DNA of 64,000 nt from NCBI GenBank assembly GCA_035998945.1, contig DASYHD010000040.1, forward strand, positions 57,062 to 121,061, in the 5' to 3' direction. The notes under the pieces are model-generated. The model saw nothing but the letters and a program-made list of their open reading frames with translations. It had not been told where the DNA came from and did not search any database. Source of the DNA: Flavisolibacter sp. GTDB lineage: Bacteria; Bacteroidota; Bacteroidia; Chitinophagales; Chitinophagaceae. Each line of letters starts with the position of its first letter. Position 1 is the first letter of the stretch. Of this stretch, positions 6,190 through 56,588 are shown in pieces. Made by a program: the position numbers and the translations under genes.

Positions 6190-8037
6190 ATGAAAACCGG
6201 CACGGCTGCTTCTTTGCCTCGTTATGATGAGCTGTTATTTCAAAACGTCTCTGAGATCATCGTTATCACAGACCTGGCTTTTCATGTACAGGCATGGAAC
6301 AAAGCTGCCGAAAACGCCTATGGTATAGCTGCCTGCGAGGCAATTGGCAAATCCATAGGAGACCTGGTGCAGTTTCGTTTTTTAGATACCACACAGGAAG
6401 AATCCATAGCCGACTTGCGGCAAAAGCAGGTGTGGAAGGGCAGAGTGTCGTTTACAAATAGGGAAGGCGAAACCTTTTATTTTCTCCAAACAGTTAAATA
6501 CATTTTCGACAACCATGGCAGCGCTGTTGGCATTCTTGCCCTGGGTCATGATATTACGGCCAGGCAACGGGCCGAGGAGCAGTTGGTAAAAAGCGAACAG
6601 TTTTACCGTACGCTGATTGCAGACTCGCTTGACCTGACGATGTTGCTGAATGCAAAGGGAGAGATTACCTTCTCTACCCCGGCCATCAAGCGTATTTTAG
6701 GGTACACTGAAGAGGAGGTGTTGCATACCAATGCCTTTCAATACATACACCCCGAAGACCTGGGCTGGGCGCTGCAGTCCTTTGAACGGGAGGTAGAAGA
6801 AAATCCCGAGATCAAATTTATTGTGGTACGTATCCAGCGAAAAAGCGGTGAGTGGCTATGGTGCATGGTGCGTGGACACAACATGCTGAACAACCCCAAC
6901 ATCAATGCTGTCGTCATTTACATTCATGATGATACCCCGCGGAAACTGGCTACCGAAGCGTTGCTGGAAAGTGAAAAACGTTTTCGCAACCTGATCCGCG
7001 ATTTGCAGATTGGTGTGTTGTTACAAAATGCCGACGGCAGCATTGAAATGACCAACAATGCCATGTGCCGGATGTTTGATGTGAATGAAAGCGTTTTGTT
7101 GGGCGGTAAAATATGGGAACTTTACACCGATGTTACCCACGAAGATGGCCGTCGCTTTCTGCAGGAAGACCGTCCTTCCTATAGAGCTATGCAAACCAAG
7201 ACGCTGGTTAAGAATGTAGTAATGGGTGTGTGGCATCCCAAACAGCAGGAGCGCATCTGGATCATCATTAATGCCGATCCGATTCTTGACGAGGCGGGGA
7301 ATGTAAAACGTATCGTTTGTTCTTTTACCAATATTACGGAGCGTAAGAAACTGGAGCGAAAAAGCTTTGCCGAAAAGATGGCGCACCAGCGGCAACTGGC
7401 GCAGGCCACCATCGATGGGCAGGAGCAGGAACGGCTTGAAATTGGAAAGGAACTGCACGACAACATTGGCCAGCAATTAACTACTATCAAGCTATTCCTG
7501 GACCTGGCAAAGGCCACCGCCGACGAAGCAACGCAGATTATGCTCAACAGGGCCTTGCGCAATGTAACGGAGTTGATAAACGAAGTGCGATCGATTTCGC
7601 GGTCGCTGGTGCCGCCAACGCTCAAGGATCTTGGCTTTATCGATTCGGTGAATGACCTGATCGAATCCTTGCGTTGTACGCAGTCCATTGCGGTGGAACT
7701 TGATTATTACGAATTTGATGAAGACAAAATACCGGATAACAAAAAGCTGGCGCTATACCGCATTATACAGGAGCAACTGAATAACATCATCAAACATGCC
7801 CGGGCACAACAGGTAGCTATTATTTTACGCCTGACTGCCCATAATGTGCTGCTGCAGATTAAAGATGACGGAATAGGCTTTGAACTGGAAAAAGTAAAAC
7901 GGGGCCTGGGACTAAGCAATATTCATAACCGCGCCGAATTGTTTGGTGGGAAGGCTCTCTTTACGTCTTCGCCCGGCAATGGCTGTGAAGTAAATGTTTG
8001 TCTGCCGCACAATACCGGTGTGGTAGCAATAAATTGA
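6190..8037 (+). CDS. cytoplasmic 3xPAS sensor histidine kinase (HisKA_3/NarX-like)
   Basis: Three PAS/PAC repeats, ERLEIGKELHDNIGQQL H-box, EQLNNIIKHA N-box, DDGIGF and GLGL G-boxes; no TM. Confidence 0.92.
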   Translation: MKTGTAASLPRYDELLFQNVSEIIVITDLAFHVQAWNKAAENAYGIAACEAIGKSIGDLVQFRFLDTTQEESIADLRQKQVWKGRVSFTNREGETFYFLQTVKYIFDNHGSAVGILALGHDITARQRAEEQLVKSEQFYRTLIADSLDLTMLLNAKGEITFSTPAIKRILGYTEEEVLHTNAFQYIHPEDLGWALQSFEREVEENPEIKFIVVRIQRKSGEWLWCMVRGHNMLNNPNINAVVIYIHDDTPRKLATEALLESEKRFRNLIRDLQIGVLLQNADGSIEMTNNAMCRMFDVNESVLLGGKIWELYTDVTHEDGRRFLQEDRPSYRAMQTKTLVKNVVMGVWHPKQQERIWIIINADPILDEAGNVKRIVCSFTNITERKKLERKSFAEKMAHQRQLAQATIDGQEQERLEIGKELHDNIGQQLTTIKLFLDLAKATADEATQIMLNRALRNVTELINEVRSISRSLVPPTLKDLGFIDSVNDLIESLRCTQSIAVELDYYEFDEDKIPDNKKLALYRIIQEQLNNIIKHARAQQVAIILRLTAHNVLLQIKDDGIGFELEKVKRGLGLSNIHNRAELFGGKALFTSSPGNGCEVNVCLPHNTGVVAIN

Positions 8038-8100
8038 CCAGAAGTACGGAGGAGTTTTCCCGCAAAATGCTTTCTAACATTTCGCTAATGGGGATTGCTG

Positions 8101-8108
8101 TAAATTTG
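8101..8108 (+). promoter_or_regulatory. Bacteroidota -7 promoter element upstream of purF
   Basis: TAAATTTG matches TAnnTTTG, 8 nt before the ATG. Confidence 0.6.
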
Positions 8109-8116
8109 CCATCTTC

Positions 8117-9964
8117 ATGAGTGACGCTATCAAACACGAATGTGGTCTTGCCTTCTTACGGCTTCGTAAATCTTTTGCACACTACCAACAAAAATATGGA
8201 ACGGTACTCTGGGGCCTGAACAAGATGTACCTGCTGATGGAAAAGCAGCACAACCGTGGCCAGGACGGTGCGGGTGTGGCTTCTGTTAAGCTGGCTGTGG
8301 AGCCGGGTTACCCCTTTTTATCGCGTATCCGCAGCAACGAGTCGCAGCCTATTGCTGATATTTTCAAAAAAATCGGCGAGGAGTTCAATGAACTGCAAAA
8401 GTTCAATGTGGACATTGCCCAGTATCCTGGATTAATGAAAGGGCATCTTTCGTTCTTGGGCGAACTGCTGTTGGGACACCTGCGTTATGGTACGCAGGGC
8501 CGCAACAGCGTCGACTTTTGCCATCCCTTCATCAAACGTCATACGATCCCTGCACGCAACCTGGCGCTGGCGGGCAACTTTAACCTGGTGAACACCGATG
8601 AACTCTTTGAAAGCATCGGTATGGAACCGGGTAACTTTCAAAAGCAAAGTGATCTTGCTGCCATGATGGAAGTGCTGCATCATTTCCTGGTAAAAGAAGA
8701 TGAGGCTGCCCCACAACAGCTCGATATTGTTTCAGTGCTGAAAAAAACAATTCCGCTGTTTGATGGTGGCTTCCATGTAGGTGGGCTTACCGGCAACGGC
8801 ATTGGTTTTGTTTTTCGCGATGCACATGGCATTCGACCTTCGTACTATTTCATTGACGAAGATGTTGTGGTTGCTGCATCGGAAAGGGCTGCTATTCGCA
8901 CAGCATTTAACGTAGGCGAGAATGAAGTAAAAGAATTGATGCCGGGGCAGGCGCTAATCGTTTATGAGAACGGTGATGTAAAAATAGAACAGGTGGTGGA
9001 AGCCAAAGAGCGCCGGGCCTGTTCGTTCGAACGGATTTATTTCTCCCGCGGTTCTGATGAAAAAATTTACCGCGAACGGTCGCAGTTGGGGTATAACCTC
9101 AGTAAGCAGGTGCTGGAAGCCATCAACTTTGACCTGAAGAATACCATCTTTTCGTTTATTCCCAATACGGCCGAAGTAGCGTTTTATGGCCTTACCAAAG
9201 GCTGTGAAGATTACCTCAATAAGATTAAGCTCGAACGCATTCTTTCCTGGGGAAACAATGTGGACCCGGTTAAACTGGAGGAAATGATCCAGCGCCGTGT
9301 GCGGATGGAAAAGATTGCTATCAAGGATGTAAAGATGCGCACCTTTATTACGCAGGATGTAAGCCGCAACGAAATGGTGCAGCACGTATATGATATTACG
9401 TATGGTACAGTTCGCAAAGGACAGGATACGCTGGTGGTGATTGATGATTCTATTGTTCGCGGCACTACGCTGCGGGAAAGCATCATCCGCATGCTGGCAC
9501 GTCTGGAGCCCAGACGGATCATCATCGTTTCATCGGCGCCACAGATACGCTACCCTGACTGTTACGGCATTGATATGAGTAAGATGGGTGATTTTATTGC
9601 CTTCAATGCTGCAGTGGAACTGCTGAAAGAACGCGGCAAGGAAGACCTGCTGAAAACGATGTACGAACAATGCCAGGATCTGCATGCGAAGAATGAATTG
9701 CACACTGTGAATGTGGTGAAACAGCTGTACAAATCCTTCACCAACGACGAGATCACGGCCAAGATCGCGGAGCTTATTACACCCAAAAGTTTACCCATAC
9801 CGGTAGATGTGATTTACCAAACGATTGAGTCCCTGCACGAAGCCTGCCCCAGTAATTTAGGCGACTGGTATTTTACCGGCAACTATCCCACACCGGGCGG
9901 TAACCGCGTAGTGAACAAAGCCTTTATGAACTACATGGAAGGCCGGAACGAAAGAGGCTATTAG
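8117..9964 (+). CDS. purF: amidophosphoribosyltransferase (Bacteroidota long form)
   Basis: N-terminal HECG, HNRGQDGAG, GHLRYGT, CSFERIYF, PRTase VVIDDSIVRGTT, YGIDM. Confidence 0.93.
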   Translation: MSDAIKHECGLAFLRLRKSFAHYQQKYGTVLWGLNKMYLLMEKQHNRGQDGAGVASVKLAVEPGYPFLSRIRSNESQPIADIFKKIGEEFNELQKFNVDIAQYPGLMKGHLSFLGELLLGHLRYGTQGRNSVDFCHPFIKRHTIPARNLALAGNFNLVNTDELFESIGMEPGNFQKQSDLAAMMEVLHHFLVKEDEAAPQQLDIVSVLKKTIPLFDGGFHVGGLTGNGIGFVFRDAHGIRPSYYFIDEDVVVAASERAAIRTAFNVGENEVKELMPGQALIVYENGDVKIEQVVEAKERRACSFERIYFSRGSDEKIYRERSQLGYNLSKQVLEAINFDLKNTIFSFIPNTAEVAFYGLTKGCEDYLNKIKLERILSWGNNVDPVKLEEMIQRRVRMEKIAIKDVKMRTFITQDVSRNEMVQHVYDITYGTVRKGQDTLVVIDDSIVRGTTLRESIIRMLARLEPRRIIIVSSAPQIRYPDCYGIDMSKMGDFIAFNAAVELLKERGKEDLLKTMYEQCQDLHAKNELHTVNVVKQLYKSFTNDEITAKIAELITPKSLPIPVDVIYQTIESLHEACPSNLGDWYFTGNYPTPGGNRVVNKAFMNYMEGRNERGY

Positions 9965-10324
9965 GTATTTTGTGAGTGGTGAGTTGTAAAGGTCAGGGGG
10001 CGATAAATTATGCAAAACGTTGGTAGTAATGTCAACGTTTTTCTTTTGCCACATTACCTGGTTAGACGAAGCCGGTGTGTGATAACCGAGAGCTTCAGTT
10101 AAAAAATGCTGTTACGTCTTCTAAGAGAATTTTAATGTGTGTAAGGTTCGTGTTAAAAAACATGCGTGAAAACGTACAACTCTGTCCTTTCTTCTTCTGT
10201 TCCTTATCTGCCTGGTCTCCTTTTCGTCGATTCTTATTCGTCTTTCACATGCTTTTAATGACTTCATTCCGCTGTTTTTTTTAACTTGTGTCAATTATTC
10301 AATACGCGAAAGATTGCTTTATAA

Positions 10325-13234
10325 ATGAACATGAAGAAGTTTGTATTTGTTGTTACCTGTTTGCTCCTCTATGGTTCCTTTGTTCAATACAGCCGCCGTT
10401 CTCCTGCCGACGAGTGGGTGGACACTGTATTTAAATCGCTTTCCAAAGAAGAGAAGATCGCACAACTAATGGTGATCCGTGCTCACAGCAACCTGGGCCC
10501 CGATCATGTGCAACAAGTAACTGAACTGATTCGAAAATACAATGTTGGTTCGTTGTGTTTTTTTCAGGGTGGCCCTCTACGGCAGGCCAATCTGACCAAC
10601 TTTTATCAAGCCATTGCCAAAACACCGCTACTCATCACCATTGATGGTGAGTGGGGATTGGGCATGCGTCTCGATAGCGTAACCAAATATCCCTACCAAT
10701 TAACACTGGGCGCACTTTCAAATGAAAAGCTGGTGTACGACATGGGCGTAGCTGTTGGCGAACAGATGAAACGCATTGGTGTACACGTAAACTATGCGCC
10801 GGTTGTTGACATCAACAACAATCCGGCAAACCCGGTGATTGGCTACCGCTCCTTTGGCGAGGATAAAGTTAAAGTGGCCGATCTGGGTGTAGCTTATGCC
10901 AAAGGCATGCAGGCTGCAGGTATTATGGCCTGCGCCAAACATTTTCCAGGCCATGGCGATGTGGCGGTAGATTCGCACTACGACCTGCCGGTGATCAATA
11001 AAAGCAAAGAGAGCCTGGATACGCTGGAACTTTATCCTTTTAAAAAATTATTTGAAGCCGGCGTGGGAAGTGCCATGATCGCACATCTGGCCATACCGGC
11101 CATCGACAACAGAACCAATCGTCCTACTTCACTTTCTGTTTATAATGTAACAGATCTCTTACGGGAAGAAATGGGTTACGATGGCCTGACGTTTACCGAT
11201 GCGCTGGAGATGAAAGGCGTAGCGAAGTTCTTTGGTGGTGGCGAAGCGGCCGTGGAAGCCCTTATCGCCGGTAACGATATGCTTTGCCTGCCGGAAAGTG
11301 TGCCTGCCACGATTGATGCGGTGAAAAAAGCCATCAAAGAAAAGCGTCTGAGTTGGGATGATATCGATAAAAAAGTTCGTCGCGTTTTGCATGCTAAATA
11401 TAATTTGGGCCTTGATAAACCACAGGTTATTGATACGACAAACCTGTTGGAAGACCTGAACAAGAACACGGAAAGCATTCGCCAGAAAGTAGCCGCCAAC
11501 GTGATTACAGTCATGCGAAACACAGCAGGCCTGCTGCCGTTTGTAGCGGGTGAACGCACAGCCTATGTCGGTGTGGGTACCTCAACGCTCAACACCTTTG
11601 GTAAGCGCCTGGCGGCTGATTTTAAAGCCGATACCTTTTTACTTGATTATAAGGCTAACACCACCCAAGCCAATGCCATATTGAATGCGGTAAAAGGCAA
11701 ATATAACAGGGTAGTGATCGGGTTGCACAATTACTCTCCCCGTCCGTCCAATAACTATGGGATTTCAAAAGCCGCCATTGATCTTATTACTAACCTGCAG
11801 GATGGCAATGCGCTGACATTTGTGTTTGGAAATGTTTATGCAGCGCAAAACTTCTGCAACGCTTCTACGCTGGTTGCAATGTATGAGGATGATGCTGCTT
11901 TTCAGAATGCCGCCGCCGACTTTTTACAAGGCGGGCTTGCTGCCAAGGGAACGCTTCCGGTAACGGTTTGCGATGTTCAGTATGGTACCGGCATTGCACT
12001 TAACACCTTTATGCCTGTTGGCGATTCGCCGGAATGGAAACCTGTAGATGCCATTGTAGAAGAAGGCCTGGCAAAAAAAGCGTATCCGGGAGCTGTGGTG
12101 CTGGCTGTGCAGAACGGCGTTATTAAATACCACAAGGCGTTTGGCCGTTACGAGTTTGATTCTTCTTCAAAGCCCGTATCGCTGGAAAGTATCTACGACT
12201 TGGCTTCGGTAACCAAAATTTCAGCAACCACTGTTGCGGTGATGAAGTTGTATGAAGAAGGAAAGCTTGACCTGAACAAGACACTGGGTGATTATTTACC
12301 GATCACTGTGGGTACTGATAAAGCACCGCTCCGCATCAAGGACGTGCTGCTGCACCGAGCTGGCCTCAACCCCTATATTTCTTTTTATCGAGAGACAATT
12401 GACCAGACTACCGGCGAACCTTCCAACGCCATTTACCGTACAATAGCGGATACGCTGTATTCTATTCCGGTAGCAAACAATGTTTGGCTGCGCCGCGACT
12501 GGAATGATACTATGATGAAACGCATTGTGGACAGCAAGCTGGGGCCACACGGTAAATATGTTTACAGCGACAACGATTTTATTCTGCTGGGAAAAGTGAT
12601 TGAGGCCATTTCGGGCCTAACGCTTGACCAATACCTGCACAAAACATTTTACCGGCCGATGGGCATGGCTTCTACCAGCTTTCAGCCCTGGAAACGGTTT
12701 GTACAGGCAGGCATTGTTCCCACTGAAAATGAAAAATACTTCCGCCGGCAAGTGCTGCAGGGTTATGTGCACGACGAAGGCGCAGCCATGTTTGGCGGAG
12801 TATCGGGACACGCAGGCCTGTTCTCCAATGCATACGACCTTTCCATGCTTTACCAAATGCTCCTGAATAGCGGAACCTTTAACGGGGAACGTTACCTGCA
12901 GCCGGAAACGATAAAACTGTTTACGGCCTATGGCGCCAACGAAAGCCGCAGAGGATTGGGTTTTGATAAACCTGAAAAAGACAATGCCTCCCGCAAAGAG
13001 CCGTATCCTTCTGCCCTGGCCTCACCGGCAACCTTTGGCCATACCGGCTTTACCGGTACCTGCGTTTGGGTAGATCCTAAAGCTGACCTGGTATATATTT
13101 TCTTGTCGAACCGGGTATATAACACAAGGGCCAACAATCTTTTGGGGCAATTAAACATCCGCGGCCGCATCCAGGATGCGATCTACAAAGCGCTGGAAGA
13201 AGAACAGAAAATCAAAATGACGGCGAAGTTTTAA
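10325..13234 (+). CDS. GH3 beta-N-acetylglucosaminidase fused to a C-terminal serine hydrolase (beta-lactamase/AmiE-like)
   Basis: GH3 motifs IDGEWG, KHFPGHG and TDALEM; serine-hydrolase motifs ASVTK (SxxK), YSD and GHTGFTG; N-terminal signal. Confidence 0.92.
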   Translation: MNMKKFVFVVTCLLLYGSFVQYSRRSPADEWVDTVFKSLSKEEKIAQLMVIRAHSNLGPDHVQQVTELIRKYNVGSLCFFQGGPLRQANLTNFYQAIAKTPLLITIDGEWGLGMRLDSVTKYPYQLTLGALSNEKLVYDMGVAVGEQMKRIGVHVNYAPVVDINNNPANPVIGYRSFGEDKVKVADLGVAYAKGMQAAGIMACAKHFPGHGDVAVDSHYDLPVINKSKESLDTLELYPFKKLFEAGVGSAMIAHLAIPAIDNRTNRPTSLSVYNVTDLLREEMGYDGLTFTDALEMKGVAKFFGGGEAAVEALIAGNDMLCLPESVPATIDAVKKAIKEKRLSWDDIDKKVRRVLHAKYNLGLDKPQVIDTTNLLEDLNKNTESIRQKVAANVITVMRNTAGLLPFVAGERTAYVGVGTSTLNTFGKRLAADFKADTFLLDYKANTTQANAILNAVKGKYNRVVIGLHNYSPRPSNNYGISKAAIDLITNLQDGNALTFVFGNVYAAQNFCNASTLVAMYEDDAAFQNAAADFLQGGLAAKGTLPVTVCDVQYGTGIALNTFMPVGDSPEWKPVDAIVEEGLAKKAYPGAVVLAVQNGVIKYHKAFGRYEFDSSSKPVSLESIYDLASVTKISATTVAVMKLYEEGKLDLNKTLGDYLPITVGTDKAPLRIKDVLLHRAGLNPYISFYRETIDQTTGEPSNAIYRTIADTLYSIPVANNVWLRRDWNDTMMKRIVDSKLGPHGKYVYSDNDFILLGKVIEAISGLTLDQYLHKTFYRPMGMASTSFQPWKRFVQAGIVPTENEKYFRRQVLQGYVHDEGAAMFGGVSGHAGLFSNAYDLSMLYQMLLNSGTFNGERYLQPETIKLFTAYGANESRRGLGFDKPEKDNASRKEPYPSALASPATFGHTGFTGTCVWVDPKADLVYIFLSNRVYNTRANNLLGQLNIRGRIQDAIYKALEEEQKIKMTAKF

Positions 13235-13260
13235 GCGTTGCAAGACATAAGAGATAAAAT

Positions 13261-13288
13261 AAAAAAGTGGCCCGGGAGCCACTTTTTT
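13261..13288. terminator. bidirectional intrinsic terminator
   Basis: aaaaaagtggc/gccactttttt hairpin between convergent genes. Confidence 0.7.
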
Positions 13289-13321
13289 ATTTTATCAACC
13301 GTTAGGTTCATGTTTGTTTGA

Positions 13322-14779
13322 TTACTCTTCCGGCTTTTGATTGTTTTTACTGCCACCTCCTTGTTGCGGACGTTGCTGTTGTTGGCCGCCACCTTGCCGC
13401 TGCTGCTGGGGTTTTCCACCCTGTGGCCGTTGACCACCTGTCTGCGGCTTTTGTTGTTGCTGACCGCCGCCACCGCGTTGCTGCATATTGCCGGGCTTTT
13501 GCTGTTGCCCGCCTTGTTGCGGTCTTTGCTGCTGGCTGCTTCCTTGCGGTTTTTGTTGTTGTGGCTGGCCCGGGCCTTTTTTCTGCACCGGTAAATTGGG
13601 CTTTCCGGGTTGCGCAGTGCCGGGTGCCAATTGCTTACTGCCCTTTTGCTGCTGCTGGCGCTGATCACGACCCCTGTCGCGGCGCTTTTTGTCAGCTTTT
13701 TCAAGGCTGCGCAGGCTGATATGACCTACCACATCCACAAACTCCGGCTCCACCTCTTTCACTTTACTGGAAACAACTTCCACGGCCTCCAGTTCATCGG
13801 GAACAGCTCCCTGCATGTTCATGGATTTGATCTTTCGTACCCGCTCAATGGTCAGGGGGTATTGCTTGTTGCTTTGCGGCAGCACATACCACATCAGGTT
13901 TTTAAAGATGTCCTTTTTGATAAGGGTTGCCGTACCCTTGGCTACCTGCAGTATGTCGGCATTTTCGGGGAAGCCCTGCAATGCATCCAGATAAGTGTCC
14001 AGTTCGTAGTTCAAACAACATTTCAAACGGCCGCATTGACCGCTTAATTTGGTTTGATTGATAGATAAATTCTGGTAACGGGCCGCTGCCGTATTCACTG
14101 ATTTGAAATCGGTAAGCCATGTAGCGCAGCAAAGCTCACGTCCGCAGGAGCCAATGCCGCCTACTTTTCCGCTTTCCTGGCGGGCACCAATCTGCCGCAT
14201 CTCTACCTTCACCCGAAACTCGGAAGCAAAGATCTTGATCATTTCGCGGAAATCAACCCGGTCATCAGCTATGTAATAAAATGTTGCTTTTTTGCCGTCG
14301 GCCTGAAACTCCACTTCACTCATTTTCATGTTCAGATTCAGCTGCCGGGCAATGGCACGGCTACGAATGAGTGCTTCGGCCTCACGGGCTTTGTTGGTGC
14401 GCCACAGATCCAGGTCGCGGTCGGTAGCCCGGCGCAGGATTTTTTTCATTTCCGGCGCCATTTCGTTGACGCCCCGTTTTTTTAACTGGAGGCGTACAAC
14501 CTCACCAGTCAGTGAAACTTCGCCAACATCAAAACCGCTGACACCTTCCACGGAGATCATATCTCCTTTTTCCAGTTGGTGCAGCATTGTATTGCGGTAA
14601 AAATCTTTTCGGCTGCCCTGACTAAAGCTGACCTCCACTACACGGCAGGTATCAGCATCGTTGATTGGTAAATTGCGCAGCCAGTCGTAAGTATTCATCC
14701 GGTTACATCCGCCGGTACTGCAGCCGCCGTTGCTTTTGCATCCATTGGGTTTACCTGTGCCACATGAACCACATCCCAT
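13322..14779 (-). CDS. ricT: PSP1-domain protein (RicT/YaaT family) with Q/G-rich C-terminal tail
   Basis: Cys-rich MGCGSCG N-terminus, GGIGSCGRELCC and KLSGQCGRLKCCLNYE; adjacent to holB. Start moved to ATG 14779. Confidence 0.88.
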   Translation of the reverse strand: MGCGSCGTGKPNGCKSNGGCSTGGCNRMNTYDWLRNLPINDADTCRVVEVSFSQGSRKDFYRNTMLHQLEKGDMISVEGVSGFDVGEVSLTGEVVRLQLKKRGVNEMAPEMKKILRRATDRDLDLWRTNKAREAEALIRSRAIARQLNLNMKMSEVEFQADGKKATFYYIADDRVDFREMIKIFASEFRVKVEMRQIGARQESGKVGGIGSCGRELCCATWLTDFKSVNTAAARYQNLSINQTKLSGQCGRLKCCLNYELDTYLDALQGFPENADILQVAKGTATLIKKDIFKNLMWYVLPQSNKQYPLTIERVRKIKSMNMQGAVPDELEAVEVVSSKVKEVEPEFVDVVGHISLRSLEKADKKRRDRGRDQRQQQQKGSKQLAPGTAQPGKPNLPVQKKGPGQPQQQKPQGSSQQQRPQQGGQQQKPGNMQQRGGGGQQQQKPQTGGQRPQGGKPQQQRQGGGQQQQRPQQGGGSKNNQKPEE

Positions 14780-53443: not shown

Positions 53444-55822
53444 TTAGCGCTTCGCCAACTGTTCTTTACCCAGTTTGGTATAGGCCTCCTTCTGGGGCAA
53501 TGTTTCCGTTTCAAACAATACATCTACCCGAACGGCTTTCAGGCCGCTGATGCCTTGTGTGTCTTCCAGGTCAAAGTGCTCAATGTTATCGCCAAGCAGT
53601 TTTTCTGCCTGCAGAAATTCAATGTACTCAAGGTATTCCATTAGCTCCTTGTGCTGCGAATATACAACGGCTATTTTGCCGGGTTGTGTCAGCCGCTCTT
53701 CCGAATCGCGGATGTGCACTTTGTCGATACGTTTTTTGATGATTTCATAACGGATGTTATAGGCGCCATCCACGTCAAACTTGCGTTCCTTTCTGCGGAA
53801 AGAAATTGTAAGCGGAATGGAATGCGCCAGGATAAGCTGCGTGGTTTGCAGGGTTAGCGGCAGGCGTTTTTCCAGGGCATGCGTAAGCCGGGCTGCTTTG
53901 GTTAAAAAGGAAAGCTGCCACAGCTTTAAATTACGCACATATATATCGCTGAAGGCGATGTGTGGCGTCAGCGACTGGCCAATATAAATATTGAATTCAA
54001 CACCATCGGTGATATAACGTTCAAAATAGTGCGGGTACACTTCCTGCACGGCCTTTTGTTCCTGGTCAATTAAGCGATCCAGTGCATCGTTGATGCGGGT
54101 GATGCTTTCCTCGTACTGCTTGCGGTGATGATAGATAATTTTCCGTGTAGGATCCAGTGCAGTGAAATAATCGTTGATCACCTTTTTCAGTTCCGGTTTC
54201 AGTTGTAACAGGTTTTGAAACACAGCATCCAGGTGTATCTGCAAAAAATCATAGATCTGCATTTCATCATCCGACAGCAGGGTGTCTGATGCCGCGTTGA
54301 TGTATTTGTCAATGCGGAATTGCGTTTCCTTCAGGATGGGGAAGTCAACTATTTTGCAGGCTTTCTTCAGCACTTCGCCGGCAATTGTTAATTGCTCCAA
54401 CAGGTCCAGTTGTATAGCATTGCTTCGCTCAACGGAAGAGTTGCGGACATCAATTGATCCATACAGCGGGTACACATCCTTGAACGAAATGGCCGGCATT
54501 TTGGCCATTTCAGATGTTTGCCGGTGCTGCAGGTAATGAAAGGCGGCTTCGGTAAACTTCCATTCTACTGCCGGCTGGATGGCCGTAAAATGTTCCTTGA
54601 TGGTTTTGTCGATCTGCATCTGCAGACTTTCATTGGTTTTCTTCAGCGCCAGCGTAAACAGTTCAATAGCCGGTATAATGCGGCTAACATGCTGGTACTG
54701 CAGTTTGCCAGCCTGATCGCTCATTATTTCCAGCAAGCCAATGAGGCTGCCGTCCTCGCATTTCAGCGGGCAAAGCAGCAGGCTACTGGCACCAAGATTC
54801 AGGTAAATCTTCAGCAATTCATTATGCCTTGTATTGTGCGTACTCAGCGTTTGATGCAGAATCGGTTGGGTTGTATGCTGGAACACCTCCTGGCATAGGT
54901 CACTGATCTCGTCCTTTCGGTGAATAACATCGTTGTTTTTGAACAGCAAACTGTTTCGGTAGTGCGTTTCTGTATAGAGGTAATAATTGTTCTTTTTGAA
55001 GAAAGGAGTAATACCGATTTTCACATTGCGCAAGCGGATAAGGCTTTGCACATGGTGTTCCAGTTCGTCGTACACTTCCACATTACTAAATGCATTGATG
55101 TTAAGCAGTGCATTTTTGATCTCGTTCGTGATCTGTGCCTGTGTTACATCGGCAACATCAATTACCACCAGTCCCTGGAACTGGAAGTTCTCCAGGGGCA
55201 ACAGTTCCCGCAGTTCATCAATCTCCAGGGTCCGGTAAGGGGAAAAACCGGCCGGCAATTCAAAATCTTTGTTGATGCACTGTACATCCACAAACTCAGC
55301 GTTCAGGTTCAGCTCAAAATATTTGGTAAGGTTGTTATCCTCATCCGGGAATGCGTGAACCGAAGTGGCAGTCAACGGCATTGATGCCGCGTATAGTTTG
55401 CGCAGGATCACATTATAAGCAAGCGATAAACTGGCTTTGGTGATATCCACCGTTGTACGCCGGTCAGGAACATTGATGGTGGTGCCACCCTTTAAAAAAT
55501 AGCGTTTAAAGCCTGGTGAAGCATATATGGTTTCGGAACTGAAAGGAAATGTAATGGCATACATGCCCTGGTTAGACGAAATGGAAGGAGGAAAAATTGT
55601 GGCCAGCAACGCTTCTACCAGGGCTTCGTGCCGGCGAAGCATCTCAGTGTCAATGCTGGGCTGTAGTAATTCGGGCTGCGCTTCTATTTCGGTTAACAGG
55701 TCCTGGTAAAGCTTTTTCGCACCGGGTTTATCTTCATTAACCATCCGCTTAATTACGGTTACCAGAGGCAGGATGGACAGAACAGAATTAAATCCGGTAT
55801 ATGTGTTTTCAACAGATGTCAT
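53444..55822 (-). CDS. large cytoplasmic GAF-domain-containing protein
   Basis: 792-aa ORF with no TM; GAF-like SLLLCPLK..GSLIGLLEI; conserved-looking C-half (AIQPAVEWKF, DVDGAYNIRYEIIKKRIDK, ERLTQPGKIAVVY). Confidence 0.8.
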   Translation of the reverse strand: MTSVENTYTGFNSVLSILPLVTVIKRMVNEDKPGAKKLYQDLLTEIEAQPELLQPSIDTEMLRRHEALVEALLATIFPPSISSNQGMYAITFPFSSETIYASPGFKRYFLKGGTTINVPDRRTTVDITKASLSLAYNVILRKLYAASMPLTATSVHAFPDEDNNLTKYFELNLNAEFVDVQCINKDFELPAGFSPYRTLEIDELRELLPLENFQFQGLVVIDVADVTQAQITNEIKNALLNINAFSNVEVYDELEHHVQSLIRLRNVKIGITPFFKKNNYYLYTETHYRNSLLFKNNDVIHRKDEISDLCQEVFQHTTQPILHQTLSTHNTRHNELLKIYLNLGASSLLLCPLKCEDGSLIGLLEIMSDQAGKLQYQHVSRIIPAIELFTLALKKTNESLQMQIDKTIKEHFTAIQPAVEWKFTEAAFHYLQHRQTSEMAKMPAISFKDVYPLYGSIDVRNSSVERSNAIQLDLLEQLTIAGEVLKKACKIVDFPILKETQFRIDKYINAASDTLLSDDEMQIYDFLQIHLDAVFQNLLQLKPELKKVINDYFTALDPTRKIIYHHRKQYEESITRINDALDRLIDQEQKAVQEVYPHYFERYITDGVEFNIYIGQSLTPHIAFSDIYVRNLKLWQLSFLTKAARLTHALEKRLPLTLQTTQLILAHSIPLTISFRRKERKFDVDGAYNIRYEIIKKRIDKVHIRDSEERLTQPGKIAVVYSQHKELMEYLEYIEFLQAEKLLGDNIEHFDLEDTQGISGLKAVRVDVLFETETLPQKEAYTKLGKEQLAKR

Positions 55823-55928: not shown

Positions 55929-56588
55929 TCAGGAGCCTTTGGTTGCTTTTGAAACGACGGTTTGGTAGTATTTGCAAACCGGCCGCAAGCCGCATTCCCC
56001 ACATTTGGGGTTACGGGCTACACAAATGTACCGGCCGTGCAGAATAAGCCAGTGGTGAAAGATGTAGACCAGGTCTTTTGGAATGAATTTGATGAGCTGC
56101 AGTTCGGTTTGCAGGGGATTTTTTGCGCCAACGGTAAGGCCAATCCGGGCCGAAACACGAAAAACATGGGTATCCACCGCCATATTGGGCTGCTTGTCAA
56201 CAACGGAGGTGATTACATTGGCCGTTTTGCGCCCTACACCAGGCAACTGCACCAGTTCTTCCACCGTCATGGGGATTTCGCCGCCAAAACGTTCCACTAC
56301 CATGTTGGCCATGCCAATCAGGTGGCGGCTTTTGTTGCCAGGAAATGAAATGCTTCTGATCAAGTCAAACACATCATCATACTCGGCTCTAGCCAGGGAA
56401 GGAATATCGGGGTAACGGCGAAAAAATGCAGGCGTTACCATATTTACCCGCTTATCGGTGCATTGGGCCGATAGGATAACCGCAACCAATAGTTCATAGG
56501 TGTTGCTAAAGTTAAGCTCGGTCTCAGCATTGGGCATGGCTTGCTGAAAATAAGCCACGCAGGCCTCAAATCGTTCTTTACGGGTCAT
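55929..56588 (-). CDS. nth: endonuclease III
   Basis: LSAQCTD, LPGVGRKTA, VDTHVFR, CVARNPKCGECGLRPVC. Confidence 0.96.
   Translation of the reverse strand: MTRKERFEACVAYFQQAMPNAETELNFSNTYELLVAVILSAQCTDKRVNMVTPAFFRRYPDIPSLARAEYDDVFDLIRSISFPGNKSRHLIGMANMVVERFGGEIPMTVEELVQLPGVGRKTANVITSVVDKQPNMAVDTHVFRVSARIGLTVGAKNPLQTELQLIKFIPKDLVYIFHHWLILHGRYICVARNPKCGECGLRPVCKYYQTVVSKATKGS

Follow-up and report, generated by a model that had tools for sequence, protein, structure and literature searches.

A candidate GAF-gated class III-type nucleotidyl cyclase, unrecognisable by sequence, in a conserved Bacteroidota gene cluster

The GAF protein and its gene

The 64,000 nucleotides analysed here (the window) come from Flavisolibacter sp. 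(Bacteroidota, Chitinophagaceae; GenBank assembly GCA_035998945.1, contig DASYHD010000040.1, positions 57,062 to 121,061 of the forward strand) and carry, on their reverse strand, a gene for a 792-residue protein, here called the GAF protein, whose C-terminal half has the predicted fold of a class III nucleotidyl cyclase. Nearby lie genes for a membrane protein that joins an HD phosphohydrolase to a PycTM-type domain (HD-PycTM) and for a calcineurin-like phosphoesterase fused to an Omp85 barrel (Metallophos-Omp85); coordinates are collected in Table 1. A preliminary description of this DNA, made by eye from the letters, had proposed that the C-half holds the two metal-binding motifs of a divergent class III cyclase or palm nucleotidyltransferase, parted by a helical insert and controlled by an upstream GAF domain. 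That cyclase interpretation of the C-half is supported by the evidence set out below.

Both aspartates on which the proposal turned, D458 and D606, are present in the translated open reading frame (ORF), 148 codons apart. The motif YGSIDVRNSS is likewise there, at residues 454-463, but the upper limit first given for it, 54472, takes in the preceding YPL, and the true span is 54434-54463. The segment ITRINDALDRLID corresponds to residues 574-586 of the protein and YFERYITDGVEFNIYIG, which includes D606, to residues 599-615. A promoter scan of the σ70 type, which does not cover other promoter types, returned fewer sites than shuffled sequence.

The upstream GAF domain is real. The family profile matches solved GAF domains over residues ~236-403, with 3p01 the best (E 8e-6) and 3o5y and 6bhn also found, and precomputed annotation places PF01590 or PF13185 on some homologues; the single sequence gave no match to the Pfam GAF models with hmmscan. 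When the full-length model is compared with the PDB by Foldseek, it aligns with the PAS-GAF-PHY modules of phytochromes. Residues 404-445, which follow the GAF domain, are probably a signalling helix or cyclase-transducer-like linker; four of them, T413, V419, W421 and F423, show little or no variation in the family alignment.

Table 1. Window coordinates of the GAF protein gene, its parts and its cluster neighbours
Feature	Coordinates	Strand	Basis or remark
Whole gene, sensor-GAF-cyclase-like protein, 792 aa	53444..55822 (incl. stop)	-	ORF and translation
N-terminal α/β sensor-like domain, residues 1-235	55118..55822	-	PAS/GAF-like by fold; model secondary structure
GAF domain, residues 236-403	54614..55117	-	Family profile against solved GAF domains
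End of long GAF exit helix (376-411) and helix 417-436, residues 404-445	54488..54613	-	DSSP of model
Palm β1 and helix α1 (as modelled), residues 446-491	54350..54487	-	Motif [YF]-G-x-x-D458-I/V-R-N/G-S462-S/T; AF2 model and alignment
D458 codon, candidate first metal-binding Asp	54449..54451	-	Invariant; penultimate residue of strand 446-459
Four-helix insert between α1 and β2, residues 492-596 (helices 495-513, 517-541, 543-555, 566-595)	54035..54349	-	AF2 model
β2-β3 hairpin, α2, β4 and remainder of cyclase-like domain, residues 597-770	53513..54034	-	AF2 models and Foldseek of isolated domain
D606 codon, candidate second metal-binding Asp, turn of β2-β3 hairpin	54005..54007	-	Invariant; E601-K/R602-Y-K/R-T-D606-G607-V-E609
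Candidate base, ribose and phosphate contacts, residues 683-710	53693..53776	-	F682-D683-V-D-G686-x-Y-N689-I-R691...K696-K697-R698-I-D700-K701...E709-R710, 94-100% conserved
HD phosphohydrolase with PycTM-type (DUF5706, PF18967) membrane domain, 421 aa	46930..48195	-	Pfam PycTM 1.9e-36, HD 2.5e-6; PADLOC PycTM and 2TM effector models
SdiA-regulated-like β-propeller protein, 294 aa	48233..49117	+	Pfam PF06977; recurs in 8 cluster loci
Calcineurin-like phosphoesterase-Omp85 barrel fusion, ~1220-1262 aa	48990..52778	+	Pfam Metallophos and Omp85; NCBIfam Omp85_fam

Conservation and predicted fold of the C-terminal half

An exhaustive HMMER search against 1.8 billion cluster representatives places the GAF protein in a family of 1399 representatives at E<1e-3 (667 at E<1e-30), almost all of them about 790 amino acids long and aligning over their whole length. 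Close relatives come from Flavisolibacter and are labelled "hypothetical protein", and a search for related loci with the single protein returned close relatives only. Public records name the family solely as "hypothetical protein" or "GAF domain-containing protein", the C-halves of many homologues carry a precomputed annotation with the very recent Pfam accession PF27174, and full-text literature searches found no paper mentioning that accession and none in which the family or a tie between it and PycTM is described. Versions of 424-476 residues, from Entotheonella and others, were considered as a new architecture and rejected: their sequences begin midway through the GAF domain and are therefore fragments, products of miscalled starts or split genes. 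Two of the Entotheonella type (L086:8001-9335 and L088:8001-9419; 444-472 residues, starting mid-GAF) have unannotated ORFs just upstream and may be split or mis-started, and one such short version is followed downstream by a gene for a 429-residue RidA-domain (Ribonuc_L-PSP) protein.

To read conservation, 143 full-length representatives (143-145 across alignments), most of them 30-45% identical to the query, were aligned with MAFFT; the N-terminal half is weakly conserved, whereas residues 410-770 are packed with invariant or near-invariant positions. The two aspartates proposed as metal ligands proved invariant in 143 of 143 homologues, and so are S462, D473, G607, G615, K696, R698, D700, K701, R710, G760 and R765; the invariant or near-invariant set further takes in R466, E601, N631, W635, Q636, R676, E679, D683, G686, N689, R691, K697, T712 and E748. 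Spacing is equally strict, at 148 residues from D458 to D606 in 123 of the 143 sequences, 77 from D606 to D683 in 141 and 27 from D683 to R710 in all, and the four-helix insert is of nearly constant length across the family. Invariant charged residues so dense and so rigidly spaced are the signature of an enzyme active site, and the two motifs singled out in the preliminary description are therefore not there by chance.

The fold was predicted with AlphaFold2 (AF2) from a 145-sequence alignment of the full-length protein, giving a mean predicted local distance difference test score (pLDDT) of 92.8 and a predicted template modelling score (pTM) of 0.82. After the GAF domain the modelled chain runs through helices 376-411 and 417-436, a strand ending at D458-V459, helix 462-491, four helices within 495-595, a hairpin (599-604/608-614) with D606-G607 in its turn, helix 626-651, strand 660-665 and then a β-β-α-β-α-β-β succession. 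As modelled, the C-half has a βαββαβ palm core, interrupted by helices between α1 and β2, and the insert of about 100 residues anticipated between the two motifs is borne out as four helices spanning ~105 residues. A reading of this insert as a hemerythrin, to which weak PDB matches (E ~0.6) gave rise, was rejected, the insert having no conserved histidines or metal ligands.

Foldseek searches of the PDB with the full-length model return sensor-cyclases as the best matches, among them 6fht (a phytochrome-cyclase chimera, E 1e-7), soluble guanylate cyclase and DosP, together with the phytochrome-diguanylate cyclases 6et7 and 5llx. The search was repeated with a model of residues 405-775 alone, built from 29 locus-derived sequences to remove the influence of the sensor (pLDDT 88.9), and class III adenylyl or guanylyl cyclase catalytic domains then make up 28 of the 31 best matches. 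The matched cyclases include Cya2 (2w01), CyaC (1wc0/1wc1), CyaB (3r5g), soluble guanylate cyclase (3uvj/2wz1) and Rv1900c (1ybt), and those that are isolated catalytic domains reach Foldseek probabilities of 0.9-1.0 and target-normalised template modelling (TM) scores of 0.49-0.54. Family A DNA polymerase palms rank below them with lower probability, a generic designed ferredoxin fold attains a probability of merely 0.28, and the best 50 matches contain no GGDEF, Cas10 or mCpol structure. AF2 and Foldseek together thus find the palm or ferredoxin-like fold that had been predicted, with class III cyclase catalytic domains the closest to it.

Strand order was also read from covariation, by mean-field direct-coupling analysis of 403 non-identical C-domain sequences (effective number of sequences, Neff, 234), with strand-strand diagonals scored against random segment pairs (99th percentile of the null, z 4.3). 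Strand β1 (453-459) pairs with β3 (608-614) in antiparallel fashion at register i+j=1067 (z 5.5) and with β4 in an ambiguous orientation (z 4.7; strongest couplings 456/457 with 661/662). The β2-β3 hairpin is antiparallel (z 4.2; coupling of 603-609 centred on 606), as are β5 and β6 (z 6.4) and β8 and β9 (z 7.0), and β4 and β7 run parallel (z 4.8). The order of the sheet is accordingly β2-β3-β1-β4, which is that of a palm. By the β1-β3 register D458 faces residue 609, beside the D606/G607 turn, a topological placement rather than a distance in ångströms; at that level the proposed juxtaposition of D458 and D606 finds its support, in the register and in the hairpin turn at 606. The last helix of the insert couples both to helix α2 and to the hairpin (pairs 581-643, 584-642, 581-608 and 582-602), and the insert is therefore integral to the domain and packed near the putative active site.

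Class III cyclases carry the motifs F-x-D-I-x-G-F-T in β1, K-x-I-G-D, and Y-D-I-W-G-x-x-V-N-x-x-x-R. In the GAF protein family [YF]-G-x-x-D458-[IV]-R-[NG]-S-[ST] appears to resemble the β1 motif and E601-[KR]602-Y-[KR]-T-D606-G to resemble K-x-I-G-D, while F682-D683-V-D-G686-x-Y-N689 may correspond, by eye and by topology, to Y-D-I-W-G-x-x-V-N. Position 602, four before D606, is K or R in 125 of the 143 sequences and position 683 is D in 134; aligned by topology only, the pair is compatible with a purine (adenine-type) base pair. N689, conserved at 94%, follows D683-x-x-G686 as in cyclases, and R691, K696, K697, R698, K701, R710 and R765 could act as stand-ins for the canonical arginine. The hairpin, T-D-G-V-E-F, holds a further conserved acidic residue, E/D609, and the protein has neither a GG(D/E)EF motif nor a match to Pfam PF00990 in hmmscan.

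Neighbourhood and co-occurrence with PycTM-type genes

On one flank of the GAF protein gene lie nth (55929-56588), a DivIC-like gene and enolase, and on the other a convergent lipocalin-like gene followed by the Metallophos-Omp85, SdiA-regulated-like and HD-PycTM genes. PycTM-type membrane modules are known from Pycsar and CBASS phage defence. In the Metallophos-Omp85 product a long unassigned middle region separates the phosphoesterase from the barrel; its ORF overlaps the SdiA-regulated-like gene by 128 nt, and its true start therefore probably lies downstream. The same genome holds a shorter Metallophos-Omp85 paralogue that has no phosphoesterase part (G000:C31:18083-20551). The HD domain of the HD-PycTM product has no significant sequence match to any solved structure, and in several genomes HD and PycTM are separate adjoining genes.

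Context was surveyed in 301 evenly sampled Bacteroidota genomes. The GAF protein occurs in 47 of them (~16%), from 31 genera, and one of the 47 alone has more than a single copy. A full-length HD-PycTM gene is present in 45 of these 47, the other two having a PycTM-only gene, and in ~70 of the 301 genomes overall (Fisher p 6e-33, without correction for phylogeny). In 32 genomes no more than 15 kb separate the HD-PycTM gene from that of the GAF protein, and in 19 the two are direct neighbours; a Metallophos-Omp85 homologue is found in 46 of the 47.

In genomes of another Bacteroidota family, ~36 of those sampled, the GAF protein is absent, and a gene of ~650 codons for a canonical PF00211 cyclase with a TPR tail (cyclase-TPR) stands between or beside the PycTM-only and Metallophos-Omp85 genes, adjoining the latter by coordinates in ~36 genomes. 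Locus L091 exemplifies this with an uninterrupted run on the reverse strand (7122-13505) of PycTM-only (188 residues), cyclase-TPR (651 residues) and Metallophos-Omp85 (1244 residues); L090, L092 and L101 have the same three-gene arrangement, and in L093 the PycTM gene is ~9 kb off. Two Bacteroidota genomes encode PF00211-PF18967 fusion proteins of 356-362 residues (L104:7245-8315, forward strand; L105:4349-5437, reverse strand), each of which would be a cyclase and its membrane module in one protein. Each fusion gene adjoins a CotH-like gene. The same slot thus holds either a canonical cyclase or the GAF protein, and PycTM is tied to cyclases by adjacency and by fusion, which speaks for a cyclase role of the GAF protein independently of the structural evidence.

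It had been suggested that the GAF protein would be the missing synthase for the PycTM-type gene nearby. The link itself holds, by co-occurrence, neighbourhood, displacement within the slot and fusion, but a synthase is not missing from the genome as a whole: five canonical PF00211 cyclases are encoded elsewhere (G000 contigs C23, C37, C27 and C5; loci L052-L056), and a cyclase is missing only from this cluster. Two of the five have the cyclase-TPR architecture (660-684 residues).

Some versions of the cluster carry PPK1, CotH, PAP2 and porin O/P-like genes (for example L045:1831-3873, L097:8042-10090 and L097:13589-16552, all on the forward strand), and a link to envelope phosphate or polyphosphate physiology is therefore suggested. 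Almost all sampled genomes of one Bacteroidota family have the cluster, which so looks like housekeeping rather than phage defence, and the locus of the GAF protein looks chromosomal and vertically inherited. Its reading as a defence island was judged unlikely because there are no mobile-element genes nearby, the GC content is unremarkable, Flaviaesturariibacter (locus L008) keeps the nth neighbour and the cluster is near-universal in one family. Neither the GAF protein nor a 765-residue homologue has a PADLOC match, and thus neither matches a PycC model.

Interpretation, rival readings and known systems

Taken together, the case for the GAF protein working like a class III cyclase is good, and we think it likely that it is an active class III-type nucleotidyl cyclase, GAF-gated and two-metal, of a new subfamily that cannot be recognised by sequence. 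It would be a soluble signalling enzyme made of an unassigned α/β domain and a GAF domain, a long helix and a very divergent class III-type cyclase domain, and would be held as a dimer by its helical linker, as class III cyclases are. Two divalent metals would be coordinated by D458, where β1 ends, and D606, in the β2-β3 turn, D683 and the basic residue at 602 would face the base, and N689 with the basic residues named above (R691 to R765) would hold the ribose and the triphosphate. Binding of a ligand by the GAF/sensor region would lead to cyclisation of a nucleoside triphosphate (NTP) to a cyclic nucleotide and pyrophosphate, and the co-inherited HD-PycTM membrane protein may sense or degrade the cyclic product. 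The signalling set would sit within a conserved Bacteroidota cluster to which the outer-membrane phosphoesterase-Omp85 protein also belongs, joined in some genomes by polyphosphate or phosphate genes.

Several observations weigh against this reading. At the level of sequence profiles, membership of PF00211 fails: hmmscan of the protein against Pfam gives no PF00211 match at E<=1, and hhalign of the family C-domain against genuine cyclase domains (28 from this genome and its class, and 9 that are cluster-associated) is not significant with or without the insert (P 0.18-0.29). More generally, the single protein has no useful match in Pfam, NCBIfam, PADLOC or PDB sequences, a DUF1525 match in Pfam (E 0.14) being taken as noise. 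The canonical arginine four residues after the α4 asparagine is unmatched, E693 standing in its place. The isolated-domain Foldseek matches have modest E-values (best 2e-3) and root-mean-square deviations of 5-6 Å, and residues 683-710, the α4 region, are of high confidence in the full model and of low confidence in the shallower domain-only model. Covariation is noisy, its Neff is low, and it is not fully independent of AF2 because the same kind of alignment was used. The HD-PycTM neighbour was not seen outside Bacteroidota, in the Entotheonella loci, and in the window the GAF protein gene is 5.2 kb from HD-PycTM with three genes between, convergent to the cluster and beside the housekeeping genes nth and enolase.

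Some of these points, and others, would also suit an active palm nucleotidyltransferase that is not a 3',5'-cyclic nucleotide cyclase, for example a GGDEF- or mCpol-like enzyme whose product, be it a cyclic dinucleotide, an oligonucleotide or some other signal derived from an NTP, is hydrolysed by the partner's HD domain. The T-D-G-V-E-F hairpin with its acidic E/D609 loosely recalls GG(D/E)EF, HD proteins bound to membranes are known elsewhere to break down cyclic dinucleotides, the full-length model matches the diguanylate cyclases 6et7 and 5llx, and the canonical α4 arginine is unmatched. Those full-length matches are, however, due to the shared PAS-GAF-PHY sensor part; once the domain is isolated, class III cyclases dominate its best 50 matches to the exclusion of GGDEF, Cas10 and mCpol, and the gene that replaces the GAF protein in its slot is a canonical class III cyclase, all of which makes such an enzyme an unlikely answer. 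The likeness to cyclases might instead be an artefact of prediction or a convergent topology, with the C-half a different enzyme of other phosphoryl chemistry that suits the phosphate and polyphosphate theme of a neighbourhood in which PPK1, CotH, PAP2, a porin O/P-like protein and a metallophosphoesterase occur in various genomes; the want of any profile-level similarity to cyclases and Foldseek E-values of only ~1e-3 speak for it. We hold this to be improbable, as the top structural matches are almost exclusively cyclases at TM ~0.5, the palm order of strands emerges from covariation as well, both invariant aspartates fall at exactly the two canonical positions, and a canonical cyclase occupies the same slot in genomes of a family whose phylum also has the cyclase-PycTM fusion. 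That the protein keeps the cyclase fold as a catalytically dead regulatory or scaffolding pseudoenzyme, as a residue other than arginine at the canonical transition-state position could imply, seems very improbable: ~40 invariant or near-invariant positions at ~30% identity, with both aspartates and the basic cluster among them, resemble an active site and not a decayed one.

If the GAF protein is an active cyclase, it adds to the class III superfamily a branch invisible to sequence searches in ~16% of the sampled Bacteroidota genomes, offers a candidate source of signal for the widespread HD-PycTM proteins, and shows that PycTM-type modules belong not only to phage-defence islands but also to conserved signalling clusters of the chromosome. 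Its pairing with PycTM points to an undescribed second-messenger pathway, and the two genes make a directly testable system of one soluble enzyme, two aspartate mutants and one membrane partner. It is conceivable, although we regard it as doubtful, that many Bacteroidota run a non-defence cyclic-nucleotide pathway in which a cryptic GAF-gated or canonical TPR cyclase signals to a PycTM inner-membrane protein, often HD-fused, which together with the phosphoesterase-Omp85 protein controls envelope or phosphate/polyphosphate physiology. Were this true, the membrane module of Pycsar and CBASS would be matched by one that serves housekeeping, and the cyclase with its insert would define a new catalytic subfamily, regulated in its own way and perhaps forming an unusual product.

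Among known systems, we class the finding with the class III cyclase superfamily under sensor-GAF regulation, but as a sequence-unrecognisable, insert-bearing member in an undescribed cluster. GAF-regulated class III cyclases such as the cyanobacterial CyaB1 and CyaB2, soluble guanylate cyclase and the chimera 6fht share its order of parts, from a sensor or GAF domain through a long helix to a C-terminal cyclase fold, and have an aspartate at the end of β1 and another in the β2-β3 hairpin; the GAF protein differs from them in its lack of a PF00211 match, the ~105-residue insert between α1 and β2, E693 at the arginine position, an unassigned N-terminal domain, and invariant motifs of its own (K-K-R-x-D-K, E-R-L-T-Q-P-G and G-x-x-G-L-K-x-x-R). 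GGDEF diguanylate cyclases also combine a palm fold and an acidic hairpin, often behind GAF or PAS sensors, but carry the GG(D/E)EF motif that this protein does not, and none of them ranks among the 50 structures that its isolated domain matches best. With the canonical cyclase-TPR cluster (L091, for example) and the fusions (L104 and L105) the GAF protein shares conserved neighbours and a slot, although the cyclases there are ordinary PF00211 proteins with a TPR tail and neither GAF domain nor insert, and their PycTM proteins mostly have no HD domain. Pycsar, in which PycC is paired with PycTM, resembles the locus in that a gene for a class III-type cyclase, here a candidate one, accompanies one for a PycTM (PF18967) protein, and the PADLOC PycTM models do match the partner; unlike Pycsar, however, the GAF protein matches no PycC model, its partner has an additional HD domain, and the pair belongs not to a mobile island but to a vertically conserved cluster with Metallophos-Omp85 and phosphate or polyphosphate genes, set among housekeeping genes.

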